Assembly: GCA_000091205.1 (NCBI GenBank)
Contig: AP006496.2
DNA from: Cyanidioschyzon merolae
Lineage: Eukaryota
DNA length: 64,000 bases
Strand: one strand, 5' to 3'
Under the pieces are notes generated by a model. That model did not search any database and had not been told where the DNA came from. It was given only the letters and a program-made list of their open reading frames with translations. This document shows, piece after piece, positions 1-38,502 of this stretch. Position numbers and translations under genes: made by a program. Positions within the stretch are counted from its first letter, which is position 1; each line of letters starts with the position of its first letter.

Positions 1-192
1 GTCACAGAACCGAGTCGCCCGCGCTCGCAGCGTCTCTCGTGGTTCACCATCGCTCGTCGACTCTTATCGCACGGAGGGAAGAAACTCGAACTCGCCAGTT
101 TCTTGAATGCGCTGCTTTTCCTCGGCCTCTTGACCAACTTGCACCTGACATATGTGAATCGAGCGGGCTGTGCCCCGACCCTATTGGAGCAA

Positions 193-1212
193 ATGGCTCA
201 GTTCCACCCGGAAGCACGACACGATCCGGCTCTGCTCCTGCGCCGCTACGACCTCGTCCAAGTACAAGTAGTGCCGACGCCACTCCCGCTGCAACACTTT
301 CACAACACCTGGTCTGGCCTGCAGCCACTGTGGGAGCGGTTGTTGCCTCGTCCGCAACGGTACCAGTTCGCTACAGAAAAGGGATTTTTGCTACTAAGTG
401 AACAGGCCAGACGAAGCCACAACATCTCCGAGTTGCATCTGGAGCTGACGACGAAAGATACGTGCTATGGTGCGTCACCATTCATGCGCGGTATTCTCAA
501 GTACATTGTCGGTAGTGAAACCGTCGTTCTGAACGCTTTTGCGTATCTGCTGCAGTATGGCCTCCGACACGGCCACAGTAGTGGTCAGCGGTCGCTCGGC
601 ACGGATGGGTACGTGCTCAACGTGCAGAGCGGTGATATCTATAACATCGGTCGGGTATTTATCGGGGAACTATACGCGCGCTCCGCTTACTTTACCGATG
701 TCTTTCTGTTGAAAACGGGCGTGTTACTAACGTCAGCATATGTGATGTTCACCATAGGTGCACTGATCGCGTTTGCGTTACGGGAAGTGCAGTCAAGGAT
801 CATGAAGTTAGCACTGGAGATCCAGAATGCTCGGAATCGCACGCCATATGCCGGAGCGCTGTTTAGCAGTTCGATTCATGCGCTGGTGCTGGTTCCGATT
901 ATTACAGGTATCCTTTTCTTTCTTTTTGAATTCTTCGATAATCAGCTGCTTGCGTTTTGCGTGCTCGTTGTCGCATGGATTGCGGAGGTGACGGTCATGT
1001 TGGGCTGGCGGAGCGGCCTCTCGATCTACATCCTTCCGCGGGCGTTTGCAGCGTACTTGTTAGCATTTCATATTTACTTTTTCTCGTTTCCCCTGGGTTT
1101 TAGCTGGTTAGCGCTCTTCACCTGTGCCGCGTTCATGCAGCACACTGTTTTTCTGGTTTTCTCTCGGTTCGAGTCACCGCGGCTTCGCGCTGAGGCAACA
1201 ACGCAGCGATGA
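193..1212 (+). CDS. Hypothetical multi-pass membrane protein. It may be a downstream exon of a gene starting before the window.
   Basis: ORF 103..1212 begins with TTG in the track. The first in-frame ATG is at 193. 339 codons stop-free. Several hydrophobic helix-length segments (e.g. FTDVFLLKTGVLLTSAYVMFTIGALIAFAL; LVLVPIITGILFFLFEFF; LAFCVLVVAWIAEVTVMLGW). No recognisable family motif. Confidence 0.35.
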   Translation: MAQFHPEARHDPALLLRRYDLVQVQVVPTPLPLQHFHNTWSGLQPLWERLLPRPQRYQFATEKGFLLLSEQARRSHNISELHLELTTKDTCYGASPFMRGILKYIVGSETVVLNAFAYLLQYGLRHGHSSGQRSLGTDGYVLNVQSGDIYNIGRVFIGELYARSAYFTDVFLLKTGVLLTSAYVMFTIGALIAFALREVQSRIMKLALEIQNARNRTPYAGALFSSSIHALVLVPIITGILFFLFEFFDNQLLAFCVLVVAWIAEVTVMLGWRSGLSIYILPRAFAAYLLAFHIYFFSFPLGFSWLALFTCAAFMQHTVFLVFSRFESPRLRAEATTQR

Positions 1213-4220: not shown

Positions 4221-7200
4221 TCAAATGGACTCGGCGACTTTGGACTTGTGAACGAGGTCAGCCAAGTTGTCGAGGAAGAGACTCGGCGTCAGGAGATGCG
4301 TACCGCCTATGTAGACGTCGAGGTTCGGCATCTGCCGTGCGAACGTAGCCGCTATCCGACACTCTGTGCGCGTAAGGCCGCCAATAAAAAAGATCATCAG
4401 CACATCCTGGGATGGTGCACTCGACTGGGTGCTCACGGGGCGTGCTTCCACCAACGCACTCGTCGACGAAGCAGCGCAGTTGCGGCATGCATCATGTTCG
4501 CTCGAAGCCGAACGAATCTCCATAGCGGACTGAGAGACATGGGCGCCTGTCGGGAGCAGCGCATCCTGCTCAAGGACGCTACCTATCGACTGTAATGGGC
4601 TCGGCTGTCCGCTGCGTACTGGAGGCGTCCTCATTTGCAGTCCAGACGGGAGATATTCTTGGTACCGTTGCGTTCTGGTGTGTGTGGTTGAGGGCGCCGC
4701 TGTCGTCGACATGAAGGCACGGGCTGCCGTCGACGTGCTCGTCGAGGTAGCGTCTGCTCCTGGACTCGAGTCGATCGAAGGCGACACTGGGTTTTCAGAT
4801 GTGTTTCCTGCGGCTGCACAGCGACCGAGAATCTCGAGCAACAGCGGTGCACCATCACGAGCTCGTCGCTGTCTTTTGATTGGTTCTGCACTGTGACGCT
4901 CTGCCCGCAGGCACTCGATAAAGGCACGAAGGCTGGCTCGACCGCGGTCGTCGATCTGGGCTTTGGCCATCCAGCGTACCAGCAGGTTCGCGTCTGCACC
5001 GCGGCACGCTACCCAGAGGAGGATAAGACGCAACTTGGCGGAGGGTTCAACGTTGGGCTGTTGGAGCAGGGCCTCAACTTGTTGCTGCTGCTCTGCGCGT
5101 CGTACTTTTTTGCCGCTCCGGGGATCCTTGCCTGTCACCAGAATCGCCTCGAGTTGTACGATACTCGCCATGTAGCGTGACTGGTACAAGGCGGTGCATT
5201 TTTCAAGCTGATCCAGGTGGAAGCTGAGTCGTTCGACCACTCGCTGATATTCGACTACAGACTTGTCACCGAGAGTCGCGTTGGCTGACCCCTCGTTTCG
5301 AGGTCTGGAGCGAGCACTGCCCAGCGCGAACTCGCGCTGACTCGACTGACTGGCGTGTCCAGTCTCTATGAGAAACCTGTCCAGTTCAACATGTGCACTC
5401 GATGCTGCCTCGTGGATATCGAGATAGCGCAAACGCAGCCACGTTGGATCGTCAGGCGTATTCAAAGTCAGCGGTATGCTCCCGATCGACGTTGTCTTGA
5501 ACAAACTACGCTGCGGCTTGACCACAATACTCGTTGGATGACTATCGACCGGAACCGGGAACATGTCGTGCAAGAAGGCATCGTACGCGAGATCATGTCG
5601 CAGTGGTGTCAGCGGGTCCGTCGCTCGATCAATGAGCACGAGACGGACGCTGCGGCGACGATACCGGCTGCGAGAAGTACCAGTACCTGCTGCTCGCAGC
5701 TCGTCTGACGGTGCTTCTGTACAAGCGCTTGGTACAGAAGCCGTAACGTAGACGGCTTCAGCGGTAGACCGGGACGTTTCCGCGTTCATAGCCGCACGAA
5801 GCGCGTCCGCAATACCCATGGCGACGCTGCTGGCAATATGGGTGGTATGGATCTCAATCTTTGGCAGCTCAAGCCCGAGGATTTGCAATACCGAGGCGAG
5901 CTGATCACCCAGTTGCTTGCATGCCCGCTTCCATTGGGTACTCGAGTCGCCTTGCTCCGGCCTGTTACCGGATGGTCCGGTGTTCCGACCGTAGAACGTT
6001 CCAAAAAGCTCCGGCAGCTCGAAAGAGAACGCGTAGTCATCGATTGGGACTAGGTCGGCATGGAGCTCCCTAACTTGCAAACTGGCGTGCATCCCGCCTA
6101 GACTTGTTCGGACTACATCGAGCAACGGACTCGTTATCGACCGGATAGCCAAGAGCAATACGTCGAAACGGCGTTGGTGTCGAGTCGACGTTGGTGTTGG
6201 CGTCGATGATGAGGCTCGCGGTGAGAGCCCTGTGCACACCTGTGCGACCTGTGCGAGCGAGGTATCGTCCCCAGTAACCAGGAAGATGGTGTTCGTTCGC
6301 GACGGCAGGTTCTTCAGCTGTGCCGCTTCTTCGAGGGACTCAACGCCAGTGATCCCGTGGTCAGCAAGATCCGATAAACGGCAGACAGCGGCGAGGATAT
6401 GTGTGCAACGTGCATCCAAAACGAGCGTTTCCCAGCAGCCGTGTCGCGGGCGGATACTCCCGAACGTGGCCCCAACGAAGCGCATACGCAGAGCCTCTCT
6501 CAGACTGGGAGTCGATCGTAGGGTCTGTGAGACGCCGGGCGTCTCTGGTGGACGCTTCGGACCAGTGCTACGCTGCGGTGGTATGGAGTGCTTGTCGGGG
6601 GCCGTGCCACCACCGCCACCGCCAACGGTGCCACAGGCACTGGAAAGCGCAGCGATGGACAGGGTTGTTCGCTTTTCGAGCTCTGTTTCTTCATCGTCTG
6701 CTCTCTGAAGCCTCCGTTTGGCATTGTTTCGCTGCCGCTGACGACGTCGGTAGACGTAGTAGAGCGCCCCGAGTACGGCTGCCAAACCAAGGACGACGCT
6801 GGCAACCACACCGCCGATGACACCAGCGTTGCTGCTGCTGCTAGAGGATGAAGATCCCTGCTGCTGCTGCTGCGAGGACGACGACGACGACGGTGCTGGT
6901 TCCGCTGTAGGAGCAACTTCTGCTACGTCTATCGTCCCGCTGGGGCAAGTCGCCAGTATGCCGGTATCGAACGTGAGTCTACCACCACACACATACGACT
7001 GCAAACGAGCGGATGCGAGCGCTGTACCGTTCGCGCTTGCGTACGGACTCGAGTCCGTAACGAGACTGTAGTAGGACGCGTAGACGGAGCCCGCTCGCAC
7101 GCCCACAAGCCACGTCGTTTGGAAGCCGAGGCGAGTATCTAATGCCGACCGAATCACAACATCTATAGCACCAGCGTAATCGCTCAGGTTCATCGCTGGG

Positions 7201-8108
7201 AAATAGAGAGTATAGGCGAGACGAATGCCGTGCGTCTCGTTCACCGGGGTGATCCATGCGGGTGACGGTTCCACTGAGGGCACAGGATTGATGCTCTGCG
7301 GAGATGCAGCCGGTGTTGCCGCTGAAACCTGCACGGTACCGTCTACGGTCCAGTTCTGGAAAAGCAGTGGGCTATCGCCGGAGGCAAACAATCCTATGGT
7401 TCCGGAGAGCATTGCGTCTGTAGCTGTATCCACAAGGGTGCCCCATGGACTCCAACCGTTCAGACTCGCCTGGAATCCGCGTCCAATGGCGGTAAGTGTT
7501 AGGATGAAGGAGTCGCTGGCGTTCAGGCTCGGAACACTGGTGGCATTCGATGTCGCGAGCGTACGCCCCTGAAAGCCGGGTCGTAGTCTTTCCAGAGTCA
7601 GTGTCTGATTCGGACCCGTCCAAAGCAGCAGATAAAAATCGCTCACATCCCGTGCACGTGCAACGATACCCACAGTACTACTGTTGGCCGAAGCGTTAAC
7701 AGCGGCTGTCACGGTGTAGTCGGTCCAGTGCGCTATAGCGGTGCTGTTAACAAACAGCGCAAGGGCACCTTCGAAATCTGTTGACTCCAGGATCGTCGTG
7801 TTCGATGTTGCGTTTCCACTGCCCGCAGGCCCAGGCTCGTATAGTAACGTTCCATCGCTGAGAAGCGACCAGCTCGTTTCAGCAGACGCAGACGAACCCT
7901 CGCTCAGCACAAGGTACGAGCGGAGGCTCTCGAACGGCAGACTGCATGGACACGCACTGAAATTGAACGAATCGAGAGAGAAAAGCTCTGATACTTGAAC
8001 CGCCTGGCGCTCTAGATCAAGAATCAGCGCTCCAGCCAACTCAACGGATACAAGTGCAAGCAACAAACAAAAGAGAATAGCTACCCAGCCACGACACCAG
8101 CGTCGCAT
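4221..8108 (-). CDS. Single continuous ORF. It has an N-terminal signal peptide, an N-glycosylation-rich ectodomain, a polyS/polyQ tract and a TM helix, fused to a complete C-terminal Sec1/Munc18 (SM) family domain.
   Basis: Track ORF 4221..8138 starts on TTG. The first ATG is at 8108 (MRRWCRGWVAILFCLLLALVSV = signal-peptide-like). More than 20 NxS/T sequons occur in the first ~400 aa. TM helix AGVIGGVVASVVLGLAAVLGALYYVYRRRQRQR. From M552 (nt 6485) downstream the SM-family hallmarks are present: 'RLVLIDRATDPLTPLRHDLAYDAFLHDM' (cf. Munc18 [23 protein letters not shown]) and C-terminal 'LMIFFIGGLTRTECRIAATF...VYIGGTHLLTPSLFLDNL' (cf. [20 protein letters not shown]...VLIGSTHILTPQKLLDTL). No in-frame stop separates the two modules. 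Confidence 0.6.
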   Translation of the reverse strand: MRRWCRGWVAILFCLLLALVSVELAGALILDLERQAVQVSELFSLDSFNFSACPCSLPFESLRSYLVLSEGSSASAETSWSLLSDGTLLYEPGPAGSGNATSNTTILESTDFEGALALFVNSTAIAHWTDYTVTAAVNASANSSTVGIVARARDVSDFYLLLWTGPNQTLTLERLRPGFQGRTLATSNATSVPSLNASDSFILTLTAIGRGFQASLNGWSPWGTLVDTATDAMLSGTIGLFASGDSPLLFQNWTVDGTVQVSAATPAASPQSINPVPSVEPSPAWITPVNETHGIRLAYTLYFPAMNLSDYAGAIDVVIRSALDTRLGFQTTWLVGVRAGSVYASYYSLVTDSSPYASANGTALASARLQSYVCGGRLTFDTGILATCPSGTIDVAEVAPTAEPAPSSSSSSQQQQQGSSSSSSSSNAGVIGGVVASVVLGLAAVLGALYYVYRRRQRQRNNAKRRLQRADDEETELEKRTTLSIAALSSACGTVGGGGGGTAPDKHSIPPQRSTGPKRPPETPGVSQTLRSTPSLREALRMRFVGATFGSIRPRHGCWETLVLDARCTHILAAVCRLSDLADHGITGVESLEEAAQLKNLPSRTNTIFLVTGDDTSLAQVAQVCTGLSPRASSSTPTPTSTRHQRRFDVLLLAIRSITSPLLDVVRTSLGGMHASLQVRELHADLVPIDDYAFSFELPELFGTFYGRNTGPSGNRPEQGDSSTQWKRACKQLGDQLASVLQILGLELPKIEIHTTHIASSVAMGIADALRAAMNAETSRSTAEAVYVTASVPSACTEAPSDELRAAGTGTSRSRYRRRSVRLVLIDRATDPLTPLRHDLAYDAFLHDMFPVPVDSHPTSIVVKPQRSLFKTTSIGSIPLTLNTPDDPTWLRLRYLDIHEAASSAHVELDRFLIETGHASQSSQREFALGSARSRPRNEGSANATLGDKSVVEYQRVVERLSFHLDQLEKCTALYQSRYMASIVQLEAILVTGKDPRSGKKVRRAEQQQQVEALLQQPNVEPSAKLRLILLWVACRGADANLLVRWMAKAQIDDRGRASLRAFIECLRAERHSAEPIKRQRRARDGAPLLLEILGRCAAAGNTSENPVSPSIDSSPGADATSTSTSTAARAFMSTTAAPSTTHTRTQRYQEYLPSGLQMRTPPVRSGQPSPLQSIGSVLEQDALLPTGAHVSQSAMEIRSASSEHDACRNCAASSTSALVEARPVSTQSSAPSQDVLMIFFIGGLTRTECRIAATFARQMPNLDVYIGGTHLLTPSLFLDNLADLVHKSKVAESI
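6829..6895. repeat. Coding triplet repeats (CTG)n/(GAC)n encoding a polyS/polyQ tract
   Basis: gctgctgctgctg...ctgctgctgctgctgcgaggacgacgacgacgacgac. Inside CDS 4221..8108 this gives SSSSSSQQQQQGSSSSSSSS. Confidence 0.7.
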
Positions 8109-8429
8109 AGGAGGCCAATGTGCATGAGTTGCCAACAAGCCTCGTGTTGGTTGCCTCCTATGTGAGCGTTACCGCTGTCGCTCTCGTCACCAGGGTAACG
8201 AATGAGCCAGAAGGACGACACTTGGCATATGCGACTTGCGTCCACGCTAAACACCGTTACCTGAGCGACGACGCATCCAAAGCAACGGTGCTTTCCCCGA
8301 GGGATAGGTACGCTTTGCTCAGCAGCAGCGCGTAACGGACGCGTTCTAGGGGCGCGCGGCACAACGATCCGCATCGGGGCCATTTTCGCTCTGGAGGGCG
8401 CACCCCAGGCTCGACGTCGATTCTGTTCC

Positions 8430-9340
8430 ACCTCTCCTAGTACCTCAGTGGTGTGTAGCAAGCGAACAAAGTCACTATGGAATGTACCCTGTAGATCGTA
8501 GAAGAATTGCCTGGAGGATATATTCTTTACTGAAAAGTTCAAGGAAGACTGCATCTCTCCTTCAGGTTAGTCATACCACGGTACTTAGATGGTTGAGGAA
8601 CGCTGAAAGGAAGAAGTACAAGCGCTCTGCACCTAAAACCGATATTCTCAAAGCGCGCTTGCGGGAAATGGTAGAAAACGACCCCTCGTTTACGTTACGG
8701 AAAGCAAAAGCGACGATAGAGGCCGCCACGGGCATCTCTGTTTCTCAACAGCTTGTTCGTGTGGTCCTGAAATCACTGGGATACCGTCGCAGAAAAGTCC
8801 AGCTTCACGCACGACCAACATCCACTGAAATCGCAACGACAGCGTTCATGGAGAGTCGCTATCGATATGAAGCCGAGTGACGCTGGTGTGTTTTTTCTGT
8901 CGATGAGACTTGCTTCGGGTGAAACGGGCGGTGCGTATATGGGTATTCGCGGAGCAGGGCGCTCATTGTACGTCTGTTGAAGCTCGAAGAGAGCGATGAT
9001 ATCCTCATCGGATTTATCTGGAGTGGGCCCGGGTGGCAGAATCACGTTCGCTCCTAGAGAAGGCGCACACAACAGCACCGACCTGGTCGATTCACTGGTG
9101 ACCTCTCCCTGACGTCTGGCGACGTGCTTCCAATGGACAATGTTGCATGTTACCATTCCCTTTGCGTTAGGGCTTTTGCCGATGATATCGGGGTCGAGTT
9201 GCTTTTCATTACTCCGTACGGTGCGTGATTCAACCTCAGCAAGGGAGTGTTTTTTATCATGCAACGTAATGATTGCTGCACTGGAGGAATCGCAGAAGCG
9301 TTCTGCACACAGCGACAAACCGGGAGCACAGGTCAGCTTT
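8430..9340 (+). mobile_element. Decayed Tc1/mariner (IS630-superfamily, DDE_3) transposon relic
   Basis: ORF 8482..8880 encodes a transposase-type N-terminal HTH (RRRIAWRIYSLLKSSRKTASLLQVSHTTVLRWL...). Downstream, in shifted frames, lie remnants of the DDE core: 'VFFSVDETCFG' (first D), 'MDNVACYHS' (second D) and 'GVELLFITPYGA*FNLSK' (degenerate LPPYSPDLNPIE block, stop in place of the catalytic region). Total length ~0.9 kb is shorter than an autonomous element. A second ~80% identical copy starts at 63690. Confidence 0.6.
8482..9330 (+). pseudogene. Tc1/mariner-like transposase pseudogene (frameshifted, internally deleted)
   Basis: HTH N-terminus is intact. The DDE_3 core is broken by frameshifts and a stop. 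Confidence 0.55.
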
Positions 9341-10022
9341 CTTGCGCAAACCCCGGTCTTCTTCGGGAACATCTCAACCTAGCGGCATAAAAAATGCATT
9401 CATTTTGAAGAAATAAGGGAATCCACGTGAAAGTAATGGACATGAAAGTCGGGGATACACGAGGGCCGTCATCGCCAGCCGCCTGGAAGAGAAACGGAAA
9501 AATCCTCTTCTCACCGAACATCGAGCGAAGAAGCGCAAGCGACGAAGAAGAAGGAGAAGGAGAAGAGGGGAGATCGTCGAGAAAACGTATTTGCCCAGCG
9601 GGACGAAGACGAGACTGTCGAAGCACAGCAGGCGCGAGCTCTACACAACCCTTGCAACGGTGAGTTCCACCAGCGGCAACAAATCGCAAAGAGTTCGTAA
9701 ACCGATCCTTCAACATCTCCATGAATACCAGACGATGTGCAGTGCTGTCGACCAGACCCGCAGAGCTGACGCGTTCCATCTTTGTAGTGTAGCCTCTGAA
9801 GCTCGAAGTATTCAAGGAGAAACTGAAGCCGATGCCAAGAGGCCCGTCGAAAAAAGACTGAGAGGCTTCAGAGGATATATACACGCCCCATGATAGTGCA
9901 AAGAACTGCGTTTCATTGAACACGCGCTGACGCGAGTACAGTTTGGTTGCGCTTGTACTTGCGGTAACGCTACGTCTCGAAAAGCGCGCATTAACCTCAC
10001 AGATGCTTTTCTTGCACTTCCA

Positions 10023-11693
10023 ATGAGCGAACACTATCGAAACAGTCTGCGTTGGTGCATAGGACTACACCGAAGTTTGTTGTCGTGGCCGCAGAAACGG
10101 CCAGGTTGCCAACGCACTGGGTTGCGGTCTCCAGTGACCGGGACGCACAAAGCACCGGTTACTGCTCACTGGAAAACGCGGGATCATGAACGTGCCGTAA
10201 AGCATACTGCGTCTTTGTGGGCCGGCGGACAAAAACGGTTTCCCTGGCGCGGAGACTTTGACGTCTTGGCTCCATGCGTGCCGCTACTTCGTTTTCCCAG
10301 TTCGAAACGACAGCTTGTAGCGAGTAGACACGACGAGGCTGGAAGCGAGCACGCCCCTGCGGACCAGCACAAGTGCGAGCACATCGCCACCGTATCGTTG
10401 GAAGGAGCGCTTGCAAAAGACCCTGTCTCCACGGGCGTCTATGCCGCAGTGCAGGACCCGGAGCGCTCCACCAGCACAGAGCATACGCAGCGTGCTCCCG
10501 CGTCACCGAGCGGCACGTCGCGGAAACGACCACGGAATATGACACCATATCGACCGGTGCGCTCAGAAGTGGACTACCGAGCACTCGTCGACGACGAGCT
10601 ACCCCGTATCGTCAAGGGGCTCGGTCTTGGGCCGACGGCAGTGCTCGCGCTGGATCCGCAACATCCTGGACCGACTGAACAAGCCAAAAATGCATACCTT
10701 TCGTGGCTAACCGCTGGGTATCACGGCAGTATGGAGTACATGGCCCGGACGGATCGCATACGGCGGGCTTTGAACTACGAACAAATCCTGCCTGGTGTTC
10801 GAGCGATCGTTGTAACGACACTGTTCTACTGGCCGGGCAAGTCGGGGTTCACCGCACCCGCAGACGCCGCAACACCGAACCGAGGCACCGTCTCCTGCTA
10901 CGCGTGGGGTCAGGACTACCACCGCACGCTGGGGCAAAAGCTGAAGCAGCTCGCAGAGGAGATTCATGCATACGCAGGAGGTCAGGGGCGCTACTACGTG
11001 GACACCGGTGCTTTGCTGGAACGACATATCGGCGAAAGTGCTGGCCTGGGTTTTGTGGGAAAAAATAGTCTGCTCATTCATCCGCAGCTCGGAAGTGGCT
11101 TCTTTCTTGGGGAGGTCCTAACGACGCTGCCGCTTCCGAGCAAACGGCCGGATCTCTCTGGACGCGGTGGCTGCGGACGTTGTCGAAAATGTCGGACGGC
11201 TTGTCCAACTGGAGCGATTGTCGAAGACCGAGTTGTCGATGCTCGACGATGCATCTCTTACTTGACGATTGAACTGAAAGATGCGATTCCGGAAGAATAC
11301 CGCGAAGCGATCGGCTCCCTCATCTACGGCTGCGATATCTGCCAACAGGTATGTCCCTGGAATCAATTCGACTGGGAGGGATCACCTACGAGCCCGCTTT
11401 TCGGTGAGGTACCCCAGGATGTCCGCGAACCGGATCTCTTGGCGTTACTGGACCTGAACGAGGTTTCTTTTCAAGAACGATTCAGGGATTCACCGATACG
11501 GCGGATCGGCCTTGAGCGCCTCCAGCGGAACGTGCTTGTAGCGCTGGGTAATGTGGGGAATCCGCACCAGTCAAGAGCTCGTCTCGTTCGATTTCTTGAG
11601 GAGAATGAAAGCGAATTACTGCGAGAACATGCCCGTTGGGCGCTTGATCGCATTGAACGGCGAGAAAAAGCTGCTGCGCCTTTTGCAGGTTGA
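10023..11693 (+). CDS. queG: Epoxyqueuosine reductase QueG (bacterial type) with a ~172-aa N-terminal extension. The conserved domain starts at M173 (nt 10539).
   Basis: ATG at 10023 was verified, and an internal ATG at 10539. Near-collinear match to proteobacterial QueG: 'CGRCRKCRTACPTGAIVEDRVVDARRCISYLTIELKDAIPEEYREAIGSLIYGCDICQQVCPWN' (two 4Fe-4S CxxCxxCxxxCP motifs), 'FFLGEVLTTLPLP', 'CYAWGQDYHRTLGQKLKQL', 'GYHGSMEYMAR', and C-terminal 'SPIRRIGLERLQRNVLVALGN'. Confidence 0.85.
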   Translation: MSEHYRNSLRWCIGLHRSLLSWPQKRPGCQRTGLRSPVTGTHKAPVTAHWKTRDHERAVKHTASLWAGGQKRFPWRGDFDVLAPCVPLLRFPSSKRQLVASRHDEAGSEHAPADQHKCEHIATVSLEGALAKDPVSTGVYAAVQDPERSTSTEHTQRAPASPSGTSRKRPRNMTPYRPVRSEVDYRALVDDELPRIVKGLGLGPTAVLALDPQHPGPTEQAKNAYLSWLTAGYHGSMEYMARTDRIRRALNYEQILPGVRAIVVTTLFYWPGKSGFTAPADAATPNRGTVSCYAWGQDYHRTLGQKLKQLAEEIHAYAGGQGRYYVDTGALLERHIGESAGLGFVGKNSLLIHPQLGSGFFLGEVLTTLPLPSKRPDLSGRGGCGRCRKCRTACPTGAIVEDRVVDARRCISYLTIELKDAIPEEYREAIGSLIYGCDICQQVCPWNQFDWEGSPTSPLFGEVPQDVREPDLLALLDLNEVSFQERFRDSPIRRIGLERLQRNVLVALGNVGNPHQSRARLVRFLEENESELLREHARWALDRIERREKAAAPFAG

Positions 11694-13036: not shown

Positions 13037-16000
13037 TCAAGCGTTTGCCTTGTGATCGTCCAAGCTCTGTGCACAGATCGCATGAAATTTTTTCAGAAAA
13101 CGCTCGAAATTTTCAGTTACAACATAGACACCATCATGCCTTGATACACGAACGTACGGCGGCGGATTTGTCAGAACGTACGGAAGACTATTCTGTGGAG
13201 TGCCCAGATTAAGGATTCGATTCGGAAACGGTAGACGACGCTGTCCGCAACTCCAGAACGTTAACCATGAAAAGCATGTCCGTTGTCGACGCTGTCCCGG
13301 GGTTGCACCGTCCACGCCCGTATCCAGCTCCGTCAACGGTTCCAGGATACGCTCCATGAATTCTTCGGAATCGATGTCCAGTCGCCGTGCAAGATCGCTG
13401 ACCAAGTCGAGTATGGACTCGTAGGGTTTCATGGAGCCTTCATCCTTATGATCGTTGGAACTAAAGCGACTGAGCAACATCTGATGGAGATCAGCGACGC
13501 TCACCCGCACATTATGGTGGAAACCGCGGTACAGTCCGTAAGGCAGCGCACCCGCTCTTATCACGATTTCGAGTAATTCGACGTAACGAATGTCGTGGAT
13601 TTCCGCTGGTACATTGGCCAGATGCAAATGCGCTCGACTAATCCGGATTCGTCGTCCGCGATGATCAAAGCGACTCACCGGCATGCCGAACAAGGACTTG
13701 GTGAGCAGTACCACACCCGGTAACGCGTGTTCCCGCGTCAAGAGCGCAGTCGCAAAGATGGAGGTTGCTGTAAGTTCCCCGCTAGCAAAGCGATTCCGAT
13801 ACCGAAAACCCTCGTCACCACCGACGTGTGCCTCGAAGACGCGAAGGGCAACGGTGCTGGGTACCGAAGACGGGGTTGCGTGGTTTCGGTACGCCCCGTG
13901 CTCGCGTGGAGTGTGCAGATCATCGTTTGGAGGCATCGTGGGTAGCACGTCAATGGGATGGTACACCTGCAAATGCCGAATCGGACGACGCTCGAACGGA
14001 TTCCCCAGACGCAAGTAGACTCGTCGGGGTGCGGCTGCTGGCACCATCTCTAGCGCCTGATGCCGAGACAATTCCGAGGTCACATATACATCGCACTGAT
14101 AGTGGCGCAGTAGCAGATCCAAGTTCACCATGGAAAACACTTCCAGGCCAGAGAGGGTTGTTTCTGGCTCCACGAAACCCTGAGCGGTGTCGTTGCTCAC
14201 GAGTACAATGGCATGCGCATGGGCAGCTTGCACCCGCGCAAGGTCCGATATGCGGAGCACTGAACCCGCCACATGTCTGAGCGGACCATACTTGGCTGCT
14301 ATCTCAGCAAAGTGGGACTCATTGGAAAGCGACGGGACCAGAACGAGCACTTCAAAGTTCGCTACTTTCCAGCCGTTCGGTGCCGAGAACCCCGGCTCCT
14401 GCGATGGCGCACTCGAGTCTGCGTTGACACGAACGTAACTCACGGACGACCGCAGTGCCTTGGTAAAAAGCTCCAAAAAGACCGTGCTTAGCGTTGAGCT
14501 GCAAGTCGCGAGAATAACCGTGGCCTCTTTCGGTGCCTCGTCTTCATCAACGTCATCATCAGAGTTTCGAAGTTGATCACCTGCGTCCTGCTCGCTGCCG
14601 GGCTCCGATGACTCGGACGCAGACCTTCTCGCGAAATCTGCCAAAGGGCGGCTTTCCGCAGTGGCATCCAGACTCGTCCGCTTGACGACACCAGCAGTGG
14701 CAGCTCGGGTGTCATGAGCGCGCTCGGTCGACAGCACAGACGGAAACGCAGACGCTGACACGGCCTCTTGGCGCTTTTGCGAGTCGTTGGATACCGCCGT
14801 GTTCCTGCGGCTGCGTGCTCTGCGTTGCTGGAGACGAAGCTTCTCCGCCGATGCAGCGGTATTGAGACGGCCTCGCCCGGTACCCAGCTCCACTTCGGGC
14901 AACGCAACCTCGACCAGGCCGAAACGAGTCCACCCGCTGGAGCGTGACTGCTTGCTCAACCGCGTGTTGTTGCTCGATGTGTCAGCGTCGTCCCGATCGA
15001 GGCTTTTGCGTAGCTCCCAGAGATCATCGACGGCTCTGGTGCTGTAGAGCCAGGAGATCACAGGACGAAACTGATGCCGAGCACACAGAATAAAAAGCAA
15101 CCCTCGGGTTCCTATTTTGTGCCGGGGATTGTACAGCACACGCCATGCTCCAGCCGAATCGAGTATCAGCAGCCCCGCCACCGCCACTTCAAAGCGCAGG
15201 TACAGCTCAAGTGCCAGTTCGCCGAGACGCACCCCAGCTAGCCGCTCTGGCAACGAGATTCGCCGTAACTTGTGCCGAACACCAGTCTTGTACTCAAGAA
15301 TAGACAACGAGTCGCCGAAACATAACGGTCGATCGATACGGGGATCAGCTAGCATATTCCGGACAAGCGTGGACGCCCCATTACAATGCACATTGGCTGC
15401 CAACAAGTACGCTGCAAACTCCAGCTGACAGAGCGTCCGAGTTTCGTACTCCAAGAGTCCCGCCTGTACTGCATCTTCCGTATCCCGCGGATGCTCATCA
15501 GCATCTATCAGACACTGAGTCTGGATGAAGAGATCTTCCAGCTGGCGAACTGCATAAGGCGTCTGGAAGAGGATATGCAGCGGGAGTCGCGGGTAGTGCA
15601 TGCGAACTGTGCGCGCACGAAGCACCAGCGCAGCATCGTCAGCGATACGGTGCGTTTCGGTATAGGAGTCACGCGGCTCAACGCCCGAAAATAACAGGCA
15701 CATTTCAGCGTGACCGAGGTCCACGCGACGGCGGTCATAAGCCTCATAGACATTGCCTACGAGCAAACGAACGCGATCCGTGGCTTCAGTGTGCTGGAGC
15801 ACGTGTGTTTGGGGCTCGCTCAGGTAGAGATCATCAAGGAAGATGATAAAGTACGCCAGAGCATTGCGTTGTTCCGCATAGAAGACAGAGAGTGCTGCCT
15901 CCAATTGCGGGAGAGAAGGACGACCAGTCACCACAATGTGTCGCCGGTAACCACCAGCCCGGAAGGAGCCCTTACCCTCCTGACTCATCTTGTAAATATT

Positions 16001-17416
16001 CACAATATTCGCAATGGCGTACGCAAAGTAGGCAACCATAATTACGATCACAATGGTGACGTAGATGCGAGCGACGACATTGGTGGCCACATAGTCACCG
16101 TAACCTACGGTCGTTACCGTCACGATCGTGAAGTATATGGAGGATGTTGGGGTGAAATGGTTCGATCCGCTCGCGTACTCGATGTCAAACATGAGCATAG
16201 CGATGCTGAAGACAATGGCAAAGAGGTGAATGCTCAGAGAGACGACATAACGCCCGACACGGCCGATGTACATGTGATCCTCGCGCAACATGTCCCGATT
16301 GTATATATAGAAAAAGGCTTGCACTGCCGTGATTGAACGAAGAAAATTGAAGTTCACAAAAGAAACGTTCCCAGCGGCGGATCGCAGAGCCGATGGTATC
16401 GATAAACTCTCTGCAATCGCACTCAGGGTGAAGACGTGATTTCGATAGTACGGACCCCGGTGCGGCAGCAGAAAGACTCGAAATGCGTAATCCACGGCGA
16501 ACCATAGACCTACAGGCCAATAGTAAACACGTCCAATGTAATCACGACGAAGCTCGCCCTCAACATAGAAGATCACACAAGTAGCCAGATCGATCAGGAG
16601 TCGAATCCAGCTTAACGCCAAAGTCACACGAGAGCGTTCCATGGTCATCTCGAGGCGCTCGACGAGCAGCGAATATCGCAACGAGTCCTCAGTGACTATC
16701 GGTAGACGATCGCTTACAGGAGGAATCATTCGAGACCACCAGGGTGTCATGACTTTCATACTGAGATGCAAAGCTCGGGCTCGATTCACCCAGTTTTGAG
16801 CGTCGTTGGCGTCAGCGACACGCTCTGCGACAACACCCGAAGCGCCAACATGGCGTACTACGGGACCGTCCGGGATTGCAGTGCTTTCAACGCTTTCTAG
16901 GTCTGGTTCATGCAGCGACGCGGTCGCAACTCGTCCAGCGTCCAGCTGGGCTAACGACGAGTCTACTGGAAAGTCCGGCTTTTGCGAAGCCGCCTCCAAA
17001 ACGCCACGACTCAGCTGCAGCGGGCTCGACGCGCGGTTCGTTTTGCCAGTCTCGCGCTGCAGCAGACGCTCAAGGACATCAGGTTGTTCGAACACGGCAT
17101 CGGTGTCCGCTGCAGACCCGCTGAATTGCCCCTCGTCCGCGTCTTCATATGGTTTGAGCCACGCGAACACGCTCCGATCCGTCAAGGCTGGCGGTAAAAG
17201 ATGCCTGTTGAGCCGCGAGCGTAACCATAGTGCCGCCAGACGCCCGCGGGCCCGACGTCTAGCCAACAGGCGGAGGCGGCGAAGCGCACGAAAAAGGAGC
17301 AGCAGAAGAAAAGGCTTGAGAGCGACTACACAGAAGATAATAGAGCCCCAAACAAGGGAAAAGAGCAAACCTTTTACGTCGCTCAACCGTACACTATCTT
17401 GATCAGAAGAAGACAT
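13037..17416 (-). CDS. Large (1459 aa) potassium channel: 6TM-like core with K+ selectivity filter and tandem RCK-type domains (Slo/BK-like)
   Basis: ATG at 17416 verified. Pore/selectivity filter 'FTIVTVTTVGYGDY' followed by an S6-like helix. 'RRHIVVTGRPS' Rossmann-like RCK start directly after S6. A second RCK-like segment near the C-terminus (AIVLVSNDTAQG...). Long low-complexity linkers. Confidence 0.75.
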   Translation of the reverse strand: MSSSDQDSVRLSDVKGLLFSLVWGSIIFCVVALKPFLLLLLFRALRRLRLLARRRARGRLAALWLRSRLNRHLLPPALTDRSVFAWLKPYEDADEGQFSGSAADTDAVFEQPDVLERLLQRETGKTNRASSPLQLSRGVLEAASQKPDFPVDSSLAQLDAGRVATASLHEPDLESVESTAIPDGPVVRHVGASGVVAERVADANDAQNWVNRARALHLSMKVMTPWWSRMIPPVSDRLPIVTEDSLRYSLLVERLEMTMERSRVTLALSWIRLLIDLATCVIFYVEGELRRDYIGRVYYWPVGLWFAVDYAFRVFLLPHRGPYYRNHVFTLSAIAESLSIPSALRSAAGNVSFVNFNFLRSITAVQAFFYIYNRDMLREDHMYIGRVGRYVVSLSIHLFAIVFSIAMLMFDIEYASGSNHFTPTSSIYFTIVTVTTVGYGDYVATNVVARIYVTIVIVIMVAYFAYAIANIVNIYKMSQEGKGSFRAGGYRRHIVVTGRPSLPQLEAALSVFYAEQRNALAYFIIFLDDLYLSEPQTHVLQHTEATDRVRLLVGNVYEAYDRRRVDLGHAEMCLLFSGVEPRDSYTETHRIADDAALVLRARTVRMHYPRLPLHILFQTPYAVRQLEDLFIQTQCLIDADEHPRDTEDAVQAGLLEYETRTLCQLEFAAYLLAANVHCNGASTLVRNMLADPRIDRPLCFGDSLSILEYKTGVRHKLRRISLPERLAGVRLGELALELYLRFEVAVAGLLILDSAGAWRVLYNPRHKIGTRGLLFILCARHQFRPVISWLYSTRAVDDLWELRKSLDRDDADTSSNNTRLSKQSRSSGWTRFGLVEVALPEVELGTGRGRLNTAASAEKLRLQQRRARSRRNTAVSNDSQKRQEAVSASAFPSVLSTERAHDTRAATAGVVKRTSLDATAESRPLADFARRSASESSEPGSEQDAGDQLRNSDDDVDEDEAPKEATVILATCSSTLSTVFLELFTKALRSSVSYVRVNADSSAPSQEPGFSAPNGWKVANFEVLVLVPSLSNESHFAEIAAKYGPLRHVAGSVLRISDLARVQAAHAHAIVLVSNDTAQGFVEPETTLSGLEVFSMVNLDLLLRHYQCDVYVTSELSRHQALEMVPAAAPRRVYLRLGNPFERRPIRHLQVYHPIDVLPTMPPNDDLHTPREHGAYRNHATPSSVPSTVALRVFEAHVGGDEGFRYRNRFASGELTATSIFATALLTREHALPGVVLLTKSLFGMPVSRFDHRGRRIRISRAHLHLANVPAEIHDIRYVELLEIVIRAGALPYGLYRGFHHNVRVSVADLHQMLLSRFSSNDHKDEGSMKPYESILDLVSDLARRLDIDSEEFMERILEPLTELDTGVDGATPGQRRQRTCFSWLTFWSCGQRRLPFPNRILNLGTPQNSLPYVLTNPPPYVRVSRHDGVYVVTENFERFLKKFHAICAQSLDDHKANA

Positions 17417-21299: not shown

Positions 21300-21803
21300 C
21301 TAGTCTCTTCGCACATACAGATCCACCTCGAAACGCACAGCACCAGAGCAAACCGGGAACCTACGTGTCCGTACGCGTGTCACAAAACTCCCCTTCTCAA
21401 GCCGCATACAAGCGACATCGGGAATCAGCCAGATCTCTTGACCCAGACGTCTGGGTTGCGGGGTAACCAGCACCTCAACGTCCGCACTTGCTGACAGCTC
21501 TGTGGCTATCCGAAACCCCGCGTTCCCCGGGAGACGCCAGCACTCGACTTTTGGTGTATGCGGGCTTGCTTCGGTTCCTTCCGAGCGTCTGCTTTCGAGT
21601 TTTGTGTTTACAACCGACCCAGAGACGACTCCTGTTTCGGGAAAGCGTCGTCTTAGGGTGTCGCGCTCTTCGCGACGCTTCACAGCCTGACGGTGACGAC
21701 GCCCCCGAGTGTGTACGAGGTAGTTCGCCTCGCTGGGGTGGACGGTGCGGCAGAGCTTGCACTCGACGGCACCCAGCCGGTTTTTGAGTGCGTAGGCGTC
21801 CAT
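21300..21803 (-). CDS. U1/matrin-type C2H2 zinc-finger protein resembling the SF3a subunit 2 (SAP62/Prp11) zinc-finger exon. Probably one exon of an intron-containing gene.
   Basis: ATG at 21803 verified. 'YALKNRLGAVECKLCRTVHPSEANYLVHTRGRRHRQ' closely parallels SF3A2 'YFMKNHLGSYECKLCLTLHNNEGSYLAHTQGKKHQ'. SF3A2 has ~45 aa before this motif that are absent here. The downstream part does not align. Confidence 0.45.
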   Translation of the reverse strand: MDAYALKNRLGAVECKLCRTVHPSEANYLVHTRGRRHRQAVKRREERDTLRRRFPETGVVSGSVVNTKLESRRSEGTEASPHTPKVECWRLPGNAGFRIATELSASADVEVLVTPQPRRLGQEIWLIPDVACMRLEKGSFVTRVRTRRFPVCSGAVRFEVDLYVRRD

Positions 21804-21835
21804 TCCGGGCCCAGCCTCAAGGCTGTCAGGTGCCT

Positions 21836-36057: not shown

Positions 36058-38420
36058 CTGGCGGGCATGAAACACCACGCGCATGTCGCCGTTAAAGGGA
36101 AACGTGATCGCGATCTTTAGCGTGTTGCTCTCAAGTACGAGTTGTATTTGCGTTAAAGTCATAGCAGAGTATACTTTACAGTTCAATTATGTTTCAACCT
36201 TCTTAAACATATCAAGGAACCCCACAGGGAAACGTTGCGAGACGCTATCGAAAAACGTGTCGACTCGTACTCGAAGAGTATTGTCAAGGCGTCGTCAGGA
36301 CTGATGCATTTGGCGAGGTAGATGTATCGCGAAGTGGCGCACATGGAAACGGTCGAGATTCCGGACGAGTTTTTCGACAAGACCTTTATTCGTCAGCTGA
36401 TGCTTGGCACAGGGGAAGCGCGGAGGGAAACTCAGATAGTGCATGCCCTCCACGAAAACTTCGCGGAATTCCGCTTCGAAGGTAATCGATACAAGGGTGA
36501 CTCGACTATTTACATATACGGGGCGGTGAAGTACCTCACGAACCTGAGGAACCATTTGACGATGGACCTCGAACATTTTATGATACGCGCCGTGTTCGCT
36601 CTCGACCCGCGCATCTCTCGCAAAGGTGCATAGGCGATGATCAATGGCATCACGAAAGATCGCAAGCGTGAAGATGAGGTCGAATTTGTCGACAAGAAGG
36701 CGTCAAAAGAGTGCGTGAATGAAGCTTCTGTAATCCGTGCGGCTATCCAAGAGCATCGTGCGGTACTGGGGTTTGTTAATCCAACAGAAAAGATATCAGA
36801 GTTGAAAAAAGACAAGGAAAGATACTATCGCCTCGTCCTGCGGTATTTCGTGTTTCTGGACCGAGAGCTCGAACGCAAAGCGGAGACGAAGCTGAGTGAG
36901 GAGAGAAATAAAGAGTGGGAGAGACGGGCGGCTTCGCTCATGGGAAGCGCTTCTACGTGGTTCCAATGTGCAACATCAAGTCACATTTTGTGACGATCGA
37001 CTCCAGCATCCTCTATGGCATCATGAGACAGATCAGTGGGGAGTTCGATGTTAGCAACGGGAAGTTCATCGGTGAAAATCGGGAGATGCACTAGAAGAAT
37101 ACCTTCGAGTTCAAACTTCTCAAAGCGGGCAAGCAAAAGTTGTTCACTGGGATGATCGAAACCGATGGAGTAGCCTTGTGTGTACACGATCCGCGGTTGA
37201 AGAAAGATCGTTCAGTGCCGTCCTCGGCTACGCCCGTGACGAAGGATGCAGAAAACAAAGCGGCGGATCCTGCGACGCAGCAGGTAGAGGATAACGACCT
37301 TGTCGTTGGTACGGCGAAGCATGAAGATGAGAAGGAGGCGGGTCTTGAGACGCAGAAAGTGCAGGATAACGACTTTGTCGTTGGCGCGGCGAAGCATAAA
37401 GATGAGAAGGAGGCGGGTCTTGAAACGCAGAAAGTGCAGGATAACGACTTTGTCGTTGGCGCGGACCCCGGGAACACGAATATCGTAACCATCGCAGCAT
37501 CCACGCCTGGGGAAGATGATACTGACGGTGACTTACGTCAGAGAGACATGCGACTTTTGAGATTCCCGACAACGAGATGCTATCGAGAATCCGGTATAAC
37601 GAATGCAAGGAAGAGAATCGAGATATGGAATGCAGGAGTGAAAGAGCACTTCGAAGCTTTGAGCGAGGTAACGAGCCGCGGAACGGACTTTCGAGCTTTT
37701 CGGGAATTCCTGCAAGTTCGTGTTGCTCATTGGGATGCGCTGTGGAGGAGTATACAAAGCCTCGGTGGGCTCGTTTGCGAATGAACTTGCACTGTGGGAA
37801 GCAGCGTGCATTCGCGAATTTTTTCAATGAGTTGCGTGCCCTGAAGGAGGATGAAAGTCAGAGGCCCGTAGTAGCGTCTTGGGCAGGGCGATGGAAGACC
37901 CAAACAGGGACTACTCCAGCTCCAACGACGAGGGTATGCAAGGAGTGTGCACGGCGTTTCGTTACAATACCGATAGATGAGTTTCGAGCATCGTATACAC
38001 ACCACGAGCTGGGTTGTACACTTCAGAGGGTCGAGATGGAAACGTGTCAGCGGCGCCCTGAGGATACAAAAAGTACGGACCGCTGACGGAAGAGCAAATG
38101 GAAAGGAGGGCGACAGTTCGTGGACTCCTTGCACTAGCGCTTTCTGCAAACAACGGCAAGAAACGTATCGAATCGTGAACGGAGACTTTAACGCCGCTAT
38201 CAATATAAGGAAATGTGCGGTGATGGAAAGAAGACCTCCAGAGTAGACAAGTGAGAACTTTGGGGACAACCTCTCAGCGTGGGACTATATGAGAAAAAGC
38301 TGGAAGCAGTAGTGAGTGGCCGCCCCCAAAAAACCGGGAGGCACCTGCACGACAGTTGGAGGCTTCTTGTCTAGGGCGGGCTTCGCGCCACTATTGTACA
38401 AGGTCGGCATCGTTTTTGTT
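36058..38420 (+). mobile_element. Fanzor/TnpB-like element, copy 2 (degenerating)
   Basis: Collinear with copy 1 but lacking the 258-bp segment 29406-29663. Flanks are unrelated to those of copy 1. Confidence 0.6.
36322..38246 (+). pseudogene. Fanzor-like nuclease pseudogene: premature stop, RuvC-I substitution and 3-bp deletion relative to copy 1
   Basis: TAG at 36631-36633 where copy 1 has CAG (Q). RuvC-I reads 'VVGADPGNTNIV' (L>P, ctc>ccc). 'ERNKEWERR' versus '[10 protein letters not shown]' in copy 1. The frame structure is otherwise identical to copy 1. RuvC-III '[12 protein letters not shown]' is retained. Confidence 0.6.
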
Positions 38421-38502
38421 TTGAAAGGCGGTGGTGGTGTGGTGTGTGTACGTCCTTTCTGAACCGCCAATTTTTCGATAAAAGCCCGAACTGCGTGAGA
38501 TT

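Follow-up and report, generated by a model that had tools for sequence, protein, structure and literature searches.

A Cyanidioschyzon merolae gene predicted to encode a membrane-anchored Sec1/Munc18 protein with lectin-type and SEA-like ectodomain modules

The window analysed here is the whole of a 64,000-nucleotide stretch of Cyanidioschyzon merolae DNA (contig AP006496.2). The gene of interest in strain 10D occupies positions 8108..4221 on its minus strand and encodes 1295 amino acids counted from the first ATG (8108). The same frame can also be read from an upstream TTG (window 4221..8138, minus strand, 1305 codons); an earlier interpretation of this DNA from its letters (hereafter the sequence-only reading) counted from that TTG and gave codons 552-1305 for the Sec1/Munc18 (SM) domain, while the ATG numbering used throughout this paper puts the domain at residues 535-1295. 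The translation is identical to BAM81213.1 / XP_005537249.1 of Cyanidioschyzon merolae 10D, for which GenBank annotates one gene. The parts of the protein follow each other as signal peptide, ConA-like lectin-type module, SEA-like module, Ser/Gln stalk, transmembrane (TM) helix, polybasic stretch, tether and Sec1 domain:

4221..8108, minus strand: complete coding sequence, 1295 codons plus a stop at 4221-4223 (identity to BAM81213.1 / XP_005537249.1)
8028..8108, minus strand: N-terminal hydrophobic signal sequence, residues 1 to ~27, MRRWCRGWVAILFCLLLALVSVELAGA (hydropathy)
7329..7931, minus strand: module 1, all-beta, ConA-like, lectin/glucanase-type, PF06439-related, residues ~60-260 (profile search, AF2 and Foldseek)
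6903..7259, minus strand: module 2, SEA-like alpha/beta sandwich adjoining the membrane, residues 284-402
7071..7097, minus strand: R-x-G-S-V-x-A-x-Y strand (RAGSVYASY, residues 338-346) with a candidate autoproteolysis site between G340 and S341 (invariance, model, hhalign)
6822..6902, minus strand: Ser/Gln-rich low-complexity stalk, residues 403-429 (sequence)
6750..6821, minus strand: single TM helix, residues 430-453, VIGGVVASVVLGLAAVLGALYYVY (hydropathy, flanking charge)
6633..6749, minus strand: polybasic stop-transfer stretch and juxtamembrane motif, residues 454-492 (charge, alignment)
6507..6632, minus strand: variable Gly/Pro-rich linker, residues 493-534 (alignment)
4224..6506, minus strand: complete SM domain with low-complexity inserts, residues 535-1295 (Pfam, PDB, alignment)

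The SM domain is recognized by Pfam Sec1 (PF00995) over residues 561-1280 with E=1.9e-52 and 179.7 bits (cut-off 30.7). Since the match runs nearly end to end, from profile position 2 to 574 of 575, the domain is complete, as the sequence-only reading had proposed; low-complexity inserts are found in it at residues ~634-645, 790-815 and 1100-1232. The closest solved structures in the PDB are Munc18-1/2/3, squid Sec1 and Monosiga Unc18 (E 3e-18 to 2e-13), Munc18-1 being the best; Vps45 scores only E 0.0035, and Sly1 and Vps33 are not among the PDB matches of the domain. Koumandou et al. (2007; PMC1810245) assigned one C. merolae sequence to Sec1p. At the sequence level, the alignment to Munc18-1 spans domains 1, 3a and 2, and the block VVERLSFHLxQLEKCTAL, invariant in three lineages, pairs with YSTHLHLAEDCMKHY in domain 3a of Munc18-1. 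The nearest SM protein of ordinary length that we found, P0077, is ~24% identical. To our knowledge every characterised SM protein is soluble or peripheral; an SM protein with a predicted signal sequence and TM helix departs from that state, and no description of a signal-TM-SM architecture was found in the searchable literature.

The signal peptide and the orientation of the protein were called from hydropathy, charge and sequon rules. Hydropathy peaks at 2.63 over residues 4-33, and an N-terminal signal is found in every complete member of the family described below. The stop-transfer stretch reads RRRQRQR, with a net charge of +8 over the first 15 residues past the TM helix; among the family members (6/6) the 15 residues after the helix carry +4 to +9, against -1 to +1 before it. 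A conserved juxtamembrane motif, DEExE..K..LSI(A/T)ALSSAC, belongs to the same region, followed by a linker whose identity between lineages is 28-38% and whose length differs through in-frame indels alone. The whole tether from TM helix to SM domain measures 63-87 residues among six members (~80 in the C. merolae protein). In environmental variants the polyGln of the stalk is longer by 3 or 4 Q.

The ectodomain contains 13 N-X-S/T sequons and the 842-residue cytosolic part only 2. This count falls short of the more than 20 ectodomain sequons given by the sequence-only reading, although it is non-random: shuffled sequences contain 3.3±1.6 sequons and reached 13 in 0/500 cases, which corresponds to an enrichment of ~4-fold, and six sequon positions are conserved across three lineages. 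A signal sequence, one TM helix, a positive-inside flank and lumenal sequons are thus all present, as predicted for a type I single-pass protein. From these topology rules we infer that the lectin-type and SEA-like modules face the lumen or the cell exterior and the SM domain the cytosol, an arrangement that fits the asymmetry of both charge and sequons across the TM helix. The signal peptide, single TM helix, basic stop-transfer stretch and polySer/polyGln tract of the sequence-only reading are all found, and its placement of the ectodomain and SM domain on opposite sides of the membrane agrees with the sequon and charge statistics.

The sequence-only reading did not mention the two ectodomain modules or the membership of a gene family. 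Over module 1 the C. merolae protein itself has no Pfam match, and a paralogue, P0038, matches PF06439 (3-keto-disaccharide hydrolase / DUF1080) with E=8.6e-5 and 23.1 bits, below the cut-off of 26.8. The relationship emerges from a three-orthologue profile, which through its positions ~96-226 matches over 40 proteins of the PF06439 type, with E down to 2e-20; among 56 profile matches, only four clusters, all of the family, carry Sec1. The AF2 model of the module is all-beta with low confidence (pLDDT ~45-65), and the top Foldseek matches of this low-confidence model are the GALC lectin domain, CBM66, galectins and the TSP C-terminal domain, with E ~1e-6 for ConA-like lectins and CBM66.

No part of the protein is better conserved than module 2, at 70-83% identity between lineages. 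Its modelled fold, b1-a1-b2-b3-a2-b4, is that of a SEA sandwich of ~110-120 residues, and it ends 27 residues before the TM helix with the Ser/Gln stalk alone in between. Neither Pfam SEA (PF01390) nor any other Pfam family matches the module at E<=10 in six members, no PDB chain matches its profile at E<=10, and Foldseek on its model returns generic ferredoxin-like matches only. The sole local hhalign match between module 2 and the SEA domain of MUC1 places FRPGSVVVQL and VRAGSVYASY in register with E=0.078, a value that by itself is not significant. The R-x-G-S-V-x-A-x-Y strand is invariant in 6/6 family members, and in the model G-S-V lies between strands 48-55 and 59-67, that is, in the b2-b3 hairpin where SEA domains self-cleave. 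The new feature of this module is an invariant R-x-G-S-V-x-A motif at the predicted position of the SEA self-cleavage hairpin. That module 2 undergoes cleavage of the SEA type is a real possibility, toward which we lean somewhat less than halfway.

Orthologues of the fusion, which the sequence-only reading had suggested looking for, exist in two other lineages. Uninterrupted ORFs were found in Cyanidiococcus yangmingshanensis (L001, 3762 nt) and in a third lineage (L002-L005, 3687 nt), with the Membralin gene as a conserved neighbour of both, and the proteins of the three lineages are colinear over their whole length, signal peptide and C-terminus included, with 50-54% identity. When the ectodomain profile was used in an exhaustive HMMER search, three more distant clusters with identity <50% also came up: P0004, P0038 and P0040/P0061, the last being Cyanidium caldarium KAK4534560.1. 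In each of them a homologous ectodomain and a single TM helix precede a full Sec1 domain at the C-terminus, the PF00995 match being full length and above threshold in P0004, P0038 and P0040; P0038 is a single uninterrupted ORF and co-occurs with P0003 in the same samples. The transmembrane SM paralogues are a family of at least two subfamilies, so far seen only in Cyanidioschyzon/Cyanidiococcus/Cyanidium. Because the one annotated C. merolae protein is identical, the orthologous ORFs are uninterrupted and the distant clusters follow the same plan, a single polypeptide is supported. We conclude that 8108..4221 (minus strand) is one intronless gene and that its product, judging from sequence features, is a type I membrane glycoprotein with an SM domain; in this single-gene architecture and topology we have high confidence.

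Taken as a whole, the data are probably best explained by a single gene for a tethered exocytic SNARE chaperone with a putative glycan-binding ectodomain that may be cleaved in its SEA-like module. In such a mechanism the SM domain would work like Sec1/Munc18/KEULE, chaperoning or templating the assembly of a plasma-membrane (SYP1-type) SNARE complex, and its leash would be long enough to reach syntaxin in the same membrane. Covalent anchoring would restrict the protein to one membrane (plasma membrane or secretory carrier), and only membranes with the protein would then be competent for fusion. On the other side, the ectodomain may bind wall, matrix or cargo glycans, and the SEA-like module would probably cut itself into two halves that stay associated non-covalently, as happens in mucins and matriptase, providing for shedding or a mechanical break point. 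For the SNARE-chaperone role at an exocytic step we consider the balance even. A fuller version, in which these would be the first integral-membrane SM proteins, present as several cyanidiophycean paralogues, with a lectin and a self-cleaving SEA module coupled to a SNARE chaperone so that glycan binding or mechanical load at the cell surface or wall would directly license local exocytosis, is offered as a tentative proposal.

The most durable alternative is that the protein is a precursor, in which SEA shedding followed by a cut within or near the membrane or in the linker would free a soluble SM domain, in the manner of Notch or SREBP, and tethering would be transient. In its favour, the modules that come before regulated proteolysis in Notch (HD) and dystroglycan share the SEA-like fold; the linker, being long, variable and rich in Pro and Gly, should be accessible to proteases; and, as far as is generally known, all other SM proteins act in soluble or peripheral form. 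Against it, the alignment reveals no conserved cleavage motif in the linker, an SM paralogue without a TM segment (CMD164C) is already present in the genomes, and selection on the tethered form itself is suggested by the conservation of the tether length (63-87 residues) and of the juxtamembrane motif. We regard this reading as unlikely.

Still less probable is that the protein acts as a receptor-like glycoprotein of the surface whose SM fold no longer chaperones SNAREs and serves instead as a scaffold or signalling module in the cytosol. The SM domain is divergent, as its distance from P0077 indicates, and its low-complexity inserts are long, so that loss of canonical SNARE chaperoning is possible. 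According to PMC13353863, the SM family has grown to 10 copies against only 16 SNAREs in the genome; C. merolae SM sequences are also long-branch in Koumandou et al. (2007; PMC1810245). These points are opposed by the coverage of the PF00995 profile over its whole span and by the lineage-invariant blocks, which fall on the core of Munc18 and on its helix in domain 3a.

The sequence-only reading had also allowed for two genes merged only as an ORF, and this we consider very improbable. In such a case the gene for the membrane glycoprotein would stop upstream, at a splice or poly(A) site, and a soluble SM protein would have its own start at ~6500-6600. The linker (residues 493-534) is indeed poorly conserved and GC-rich, so that a chance open frame over ~40 codons is not improbable, and one database gene call, P0074 (754 aa), begins exactly at Met542. 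However, P0074 has no SM-only counterpart among database gene calls, and its 2513-nt contig breaks off 40 nt upstream of Met542 with the frame open to the contig edge; the frame relation is kept in three lineages (~50% identity) and in the three more distant clusters. No Met is conserved between TM helix and SM core in the three lineages: in C. merolae Met542 is the only candidate internal start, its position is Ala in the orthologues, and the lineage of L002 has no Met from residue 450 to 13 residues inside the SM domain. A start at Met542, 7 residues into SM helix 1, would cut short this first helix, which in our alignment corresponds to Munc18-1 residues ~5-30. C. merolae is also reportedly intron-poor, with only ~27 introns (Matsuzaki et al. 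2004), and GenBank annotates a single gene; both points count against two genes. The one-polypeptide interpretation, which the sequence-only reading had put first, is therefore retained.

The tethered SM protein can be compared with several known systems. With Sec1/Munc18-1 (STXBP1)/KEULE (SEC11) it has in common the full-length PF00995 domain and, presumably, a role in chaperoning plasma-membrane Qa-SNAREs; those proteins, however, reach membranes via syntaxin or tethering complexes, whereas the C. merolae protein is predicted to be integral, of type I, and carries large low-complexity inserts as well as 534 additional residues at its N-terminus. The ectodomain invites comparison with SEA glycoproteins (MUC1, MUC16, matriptase/TMPRSS6, enteropeptidase, Gpr126) and with the SEA-like membrane-adjacent domains of dystroglycan, Notch HD, PCDH15 MAD12 and IA-2. 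Here the cytosolic part is an SM domain instead of a short tail, protease or GPCR, module 2 lacks a Pfam SEA sequence match, and the host is a red alga; classical SEA domains, as far as we know, are mostly from animals. PF06439, CBM66 and other ConA-like modules are related to module 1 by profile homology and ConA-like fold matches, although the C. merolae protein itself stays below Pfam thresholds, and we know of no other family in which PF06439 and an SM domain are joined. Vps33 in HOPS/CORVET offers a functional analogy, as its SM activity is likewise held at a defined membrane; it is recruited by protein complexes, Rab or lipid binding instead of a covalent TM anchor, and belongs to a different SM subfamily with no PDB match to the C. 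merolae protein.

SNARE-mediated fusion cannot do without SM proteins, and their recruitment to the right membrane and its coupling to SNARE assembly are debated. A natural SM protein covalently anchored by a leash of conserved length (63-87 residues) would be an evolutionary experiment on this question: it points to a possible action in cis, from the membrane, of a Sec1/Munc18-type domain, and it makes tethering geometry testable. The lectin-SEA ectodomain suggests a link between the state of the wall or matrix and secretion, and SEA-type autoproteolysis, if confirmed, would extend outside animals to a red alga. C. merolae has efficient homologous recombination, and haploid (wall-less) and diploid (walled) stages are now available. 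Together with a complement of only 16 SNAREs, as given in PMC13353863, these properties make genetic tests feasible.

The same source (2026) counts 10 SM genes each in Cz. merolae, Cc. yangmingshanensis and Cd. caldarium. Its main text treats them as ordinary SM genes and does not discuss ectodomain or topology; the relevant flags, which came from SignalP and Phobius, stand in supplementary columns. There, CMI070C, CdcalHa5_g153 and CdcalHa5_g912 are marked as SP(Sec/SPI) with 1 TM, and their expression is strongly biased to the diploid, cell-walled stage. These paralogous 'SEC' genes thus resemble the C. merolae protein in having SP and TM and occur in the same organisms; two Galdieria 'SEC' genes, GpartN1_g718 and g1423, are also flagged SP and TM in these columns.

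The open reading frame on the minus strand of the window ends at 4221 and starts either at 8138 (TTG, 1305 codons) or at 8108 (first ATG, 1295 codons); residues are numbered here from the ATG. The Pfam Sec1 profile (PF00995) matches residues 561-1280 with E=1.9e-52, over profile positions 2-574 of 575. In a search of solved structures the closest to the window protein is Munc18-1 (E=3e-18), followed by Munc18-2, Munc18-3, squid Sec1 and Monosiga Unc18; the match to Vps45 is weak (0.0035), and Sly1 and Vps33 are absent from the matches of this search. This homology suggests an SM domain of the exocytic Sec1/Munc18 type. The block VVERLSFHLxQLEKCTAL, invariant across three lineages, is aligned to YSTHLHLAEDCMKHY of Munc18-1, a segment of the domain 3a helix; SNARE templating in Munc18 and Vps33 takes place on the surface that this helix forms. 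A hydropathy scan identifies only two hydrophobic segments in the protein: a signal-like one at residues 4-33 and the TM helix at 427-453. ORF scan, Pfam and hydropathy thus bear out the description given by the sequence-only reading, of a single ORF with a complete SM domain, a signal-like segment and a TM helix.

Searching with the whole protein recovered two full-length relatives, both only 50-51% identical to it: P0002, a "syntaxin binding protein" of Cyanidiococcus yangmingshanensis (1253 aa), and P0003 (1228 aa), whose source is hot-spring metagenomes. In genomic DNA each is encoded by one uninterrupted ORF (3762 and 3687 nt, respectively). A Membralin gene lies downstream of both, on the opposite strand, as it does in the window (103..1212). 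The window protein aligns with P0002 and P0003 colinearly over its whole length, signal peptide and C-terminus included, with the following levels of conservation.

Segments of the window protein and their sequence identity between lineages
Ectodomain module 1, residues about 60-260: about 50%
Ectodomain module 2, residues 284-402: 70-83%, the highest of the protein
TM helix, residues 427-453: 56-70%
Juxtamembrane segment: 52-80%
Linker, residues 493-534: 28-38%, with in-frame indels
SM domain, residues 535-1295: 52-68%

Two short motifs stand out in these three lineages, which form subfamily A. Just after the signal peptide (near residues 49-58; window 8028..8000 region) the Cys-containing sequence NFSACPCSLP conforms to an invariant N-x-S-x-C-P-C-S-L-P, which contains a conserved sequon. 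On the cytosolic side, the juxtamembrane motif DEExE..K..LSI(A/T)ALSSAC (window 6633..6690, residues about 472-492) is conserved in subfamily A and not found in the more distant relatives P0004, P0038 and P0040. Near-identical environmental variants of the window protein carry 3 or 4 additional Gln in the polyGln of the stalk (window about 6870-6885, residue about 412) and the changes R6P and L19F (signal peptide), P521S (linker) and P1171L (SM insert), and a few also have the module 1 substitutions F48L, E70Q and E108D; most of the changes are located where the protein is least constrained.

To delineate the wider family, a profile built from the three ectodomains only was run with HMMER, exhaustively, against 1.84 billion representative proteins. 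Outside the cluster of the query, both ectodomain modules are matched by three proteins: P0004 (1084 aa, E=7e-47), P0038 (1306 aa) and P0040 (1192 aa), whose 90% cluster includes KAK4534560.1 of Cyanidium caldarium. Each ends in a full-length Sec1 domain and has a single TM helix in its central part, with an Arg/Lys cluster directly behind it; an SM domain is present in none of the other ~50 matches to the ectodomain profile. P0038 is one uninterrupted ORF in genomic DNA. Since P0038 (contig L007, 6001..9921) and P0003 (contig L004, 6001..9687) occur together in both JGI sample 3300051397 and SRA run SRR18192416, they are most likely paralogues, and one organism most likely has at least two transmembrane SM proteins (subfamilies A and B); the SM domains of the two are strongly divergent (phmmer E about 2e-6). 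A synteny check for orthology of P0038 with the paralogue CMI070C did not find the alternative-oxidase neighbour. The ectodomain of P0004 is 33% identical; its contig (L009, 1..5357) has 50% GC, and for this reason P0004 is probably not a Galdieria protein. Its gene call is without the signal peptide and the first ~90 ectodomain residues (the start of module 1), with upstream stops in all frames; the cause may be an intron or a fault of the assembly, or the protein may really be shorter.

The order of elements in the protein is signal peptide, lectin-type module, SEA-like module, Ser/Gln stalk, TM helix, polybasic stretch, tether and SM domain. Directly after the TM helix comes RRRQRQRNNAKRR, and in 6/6 members of the family the net charge of the 15 residues flanking the helix is -1 to +1 before it versus +4 to +9 after it. 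N-X-S/T sequons, of which more than 20 had been claimed for the ectodomain, number 13 there versus 2 in the 842 cytosolic residues; the ectodomain count is ~4x the shuffled expectation (3.3±1.6), and 13 was reached in 0/500 shuffles. Together, the positive-inside rule and the asymmetry of the sequons point to an ectodomain that would be lumenal or extracellular and N-glycosylated, with the SM domain in the cytosol.

Pfam finds nothing significant in the ectodomain, only weak noise in the TM region (DUF4381, Amnionless, Insulin_TMD). The remaining matches to the ectodomain profile cover positions about 96-226 and come from proteins that have at least one module of PF06439 (3-keto-disaccharide hydrolase/DUF1080), a family that belongs to the ConA-like lectin/glucanase superfamily; in the paralogue P0038 the PF06439 match has E=8.6e-5. 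The AlphaFold model that covers the whole ectodomain has low confidence (mean pLDDT 55); its module 1 part is all-beta, and the best Foldseek matches of this part are ConA-like carbohydrate-binding folds (the galactocerebrosidase lectin domain, CBM66, galectins and the TSP C-terminal domain). On the strength of these profile and model matches, module 1 is probably a beta-sandwich of lectin or CBM type. The profile of module 2 has no match among PDB sequences, and the structural comparison of its model gave the following results.

Structural comparison of module 2
TMPRSS6 (matriptase-2): 9.5
1ivz, murine MUC16-like SEA: 9.2
MUC16 SEA5: 8.9 and 8.7
Gpr126: 7.7
2e7v, SEA of a transmembrane protease: 7.3

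Lower in the same list are the membrane-adjacent domains PCDH15 MAD12, sarcoglycan, dystroglycan, Notch2 HD and IA-2. A single strand, R-x-G-S-V-x-A-x-Y (RAGSVYASY, residues 338-346), holds 6/14 invariant columns of module 2 and is placed by the model in the b2-b3 hairpin. This hairpin is the site of autoproteolysis in SEA domains, at G|SVVV in MUC1 and G|SVIA in matriptase. In P0004 and P0038 the motif is exactly GSVIA, and the sole local alignment produced by hhalign between module 2 and the MUC1 SEA domain is VRAGSVYASY/FRPGSVVVQL, at the same domain positions, with an E of 0.078 that is not significant alone. Module 2 thus has a predicted SEA-like fold and, within it, a candidate site of self-cleavage.

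In the explanation that we favour, a SNARE chaperone of the Sec1/Munc18 type would be permanently fixed to a single membrane, the plasma membrane or that of secretory carriers. In the six members 63-87 residues separate the TM helix from the first SM helix, and such a tether is long enough for the SM domain to reach syntaxin in the same membrane. An anchored SM protein could in this way confine fusion competence to its own membrane, while the ectodomain might engage glycans of wall, matrix or cargo, and the SEA module might provide a shedding or mechanical break point. The protein could instead be a precursor from which regulated proteolysis frees the SM domain, an alternative that we consider unlikely. 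That the SM fold was recruited as a non-SNARE scaffold seems quite improbable.

The genome of C. merolae is almost without introns (about 27), and the window, with its long uninterrupted ORFs on alternating strands, fits such a genome; in GenBank the gene is already annotated as one protein of 1295 aa, BAM81213.1. Between the TM region and the SM domain there is a GC-rich linker of 28-42 codons, too short and of too high a GC content for its stop codons and GC3 to be informative. From the TM helix to the SM core, C. merolae has a single in-frame Met, Met542, which is already 7 residues into the first SM helix; the two orthologues have Ala at this position, and the P0003 lineage has its nearest Met 13 residues into the SM domain. 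A 754-aa gene call (P0074) begins exactly at Met542, as a separate SM gene might. The one contig read that carries it (L006, 2513 nt) starts 40 nt upstream of Met542 with the frame open to its edge, so this call is a truncation artefact. Given the single GenBank protein, the colinear single ORFs of the orthologues, the lack of a conserved Met and the artefactual nature of P0074, the suggestion that two genes are merged only at the ORF level is not upheld, and we regard two separate genes as very unlikely.

By sequence the window protein belongs to the SM family; it differs from the characterised SM proteins, which to our knowledge are all soluble or peripheral. A recent study (PMC13353863; 2026, Plant Cell) reports that Cz. 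merolae, Cc. yangmingshanensis and Cd. caldarium each have 16 SNAREs and 10 SM genes, where the canonical number is four; several of the SM genes are mostly expressed in the cell-walled diploid stage, and its authors propose that these work with SYP1 in wall construction. The data sets of the same study flag SP(Sec/SPI) and TM on the paralogues CMI070C, CdcalHa5_g153, g912, Galdieria g718 and g1423, and include an SM paralogue without a TM segment, CMD164C, whose existence suggests that the anchored forms are additional specialised copies. The SP/TM flags appear only in supplementary columns, and in the passages covered architecture, ectodomain and topology are not discussed. Earlier, the divergent SM sequences of C. 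merolae had only been sorted into four clades (Koumandou et al. 2007, PMC1810245). In a search of the searchable literature for the exact phrase "transmembrane SM", no paper contains it. While the gene and its single-ORF annotation are already public, a conserved family with the plan of lectin, SEA-like module, TM helix and tethered SM domain appears to be undescribed so far.

With regard to the surroundings of the gene, no trafficking genes are found near it in the window, and Rfam and tRNA scans of the window are empty. While Membralin downstream is conserved in the three lineages, the upstream side is rearranged (window 8108..11693 versus 1..6000 of L001, the contig of P0002, and 1..6000 of L002, from the P0003 lineage). 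Other features of the window are as follows.

8482..8880 (+), 132-aa ORF with a Tc1/mariner-type transposase HTH (PF01498 HTH_Tnp_Tc3_2, E=2e-7, just above threshold)
10023..11693, QueG-like gene
13037..17416 (-), 1459-aa ORF with BK/Slo-type potassium channel domains (Ion_trans_2, Slo-like RCK, BK_channel_a)
21788..24556 (+), 922-aa ORF, no Pfam match at the thresholds used
38391..39383 (-), 330-aa ORF, no Pfam match at the thresholds used
42920..44464 (+), 514-aa ORF, no Pfam match at the thresholds used

The transposase-like ORF sits in the 1.9-kb gap directly upstream of the start of the SM gene, has no obvious DDE-domain ORF adjoining it, and may be a degraded transposon remnant. In C. 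merolae this remnant and the QueG-like gene occupy the upstream side, which in Cyanidiococcus and the P0003 lineage carries 6PF2K and a GOST_TM gene; in Cyanidiococcus the QueG-like gene is on the other side (L001, 15151 onward). The product of 13037..17416 is a large K+ channel of the calcium-activated type, in a very small algal genome.
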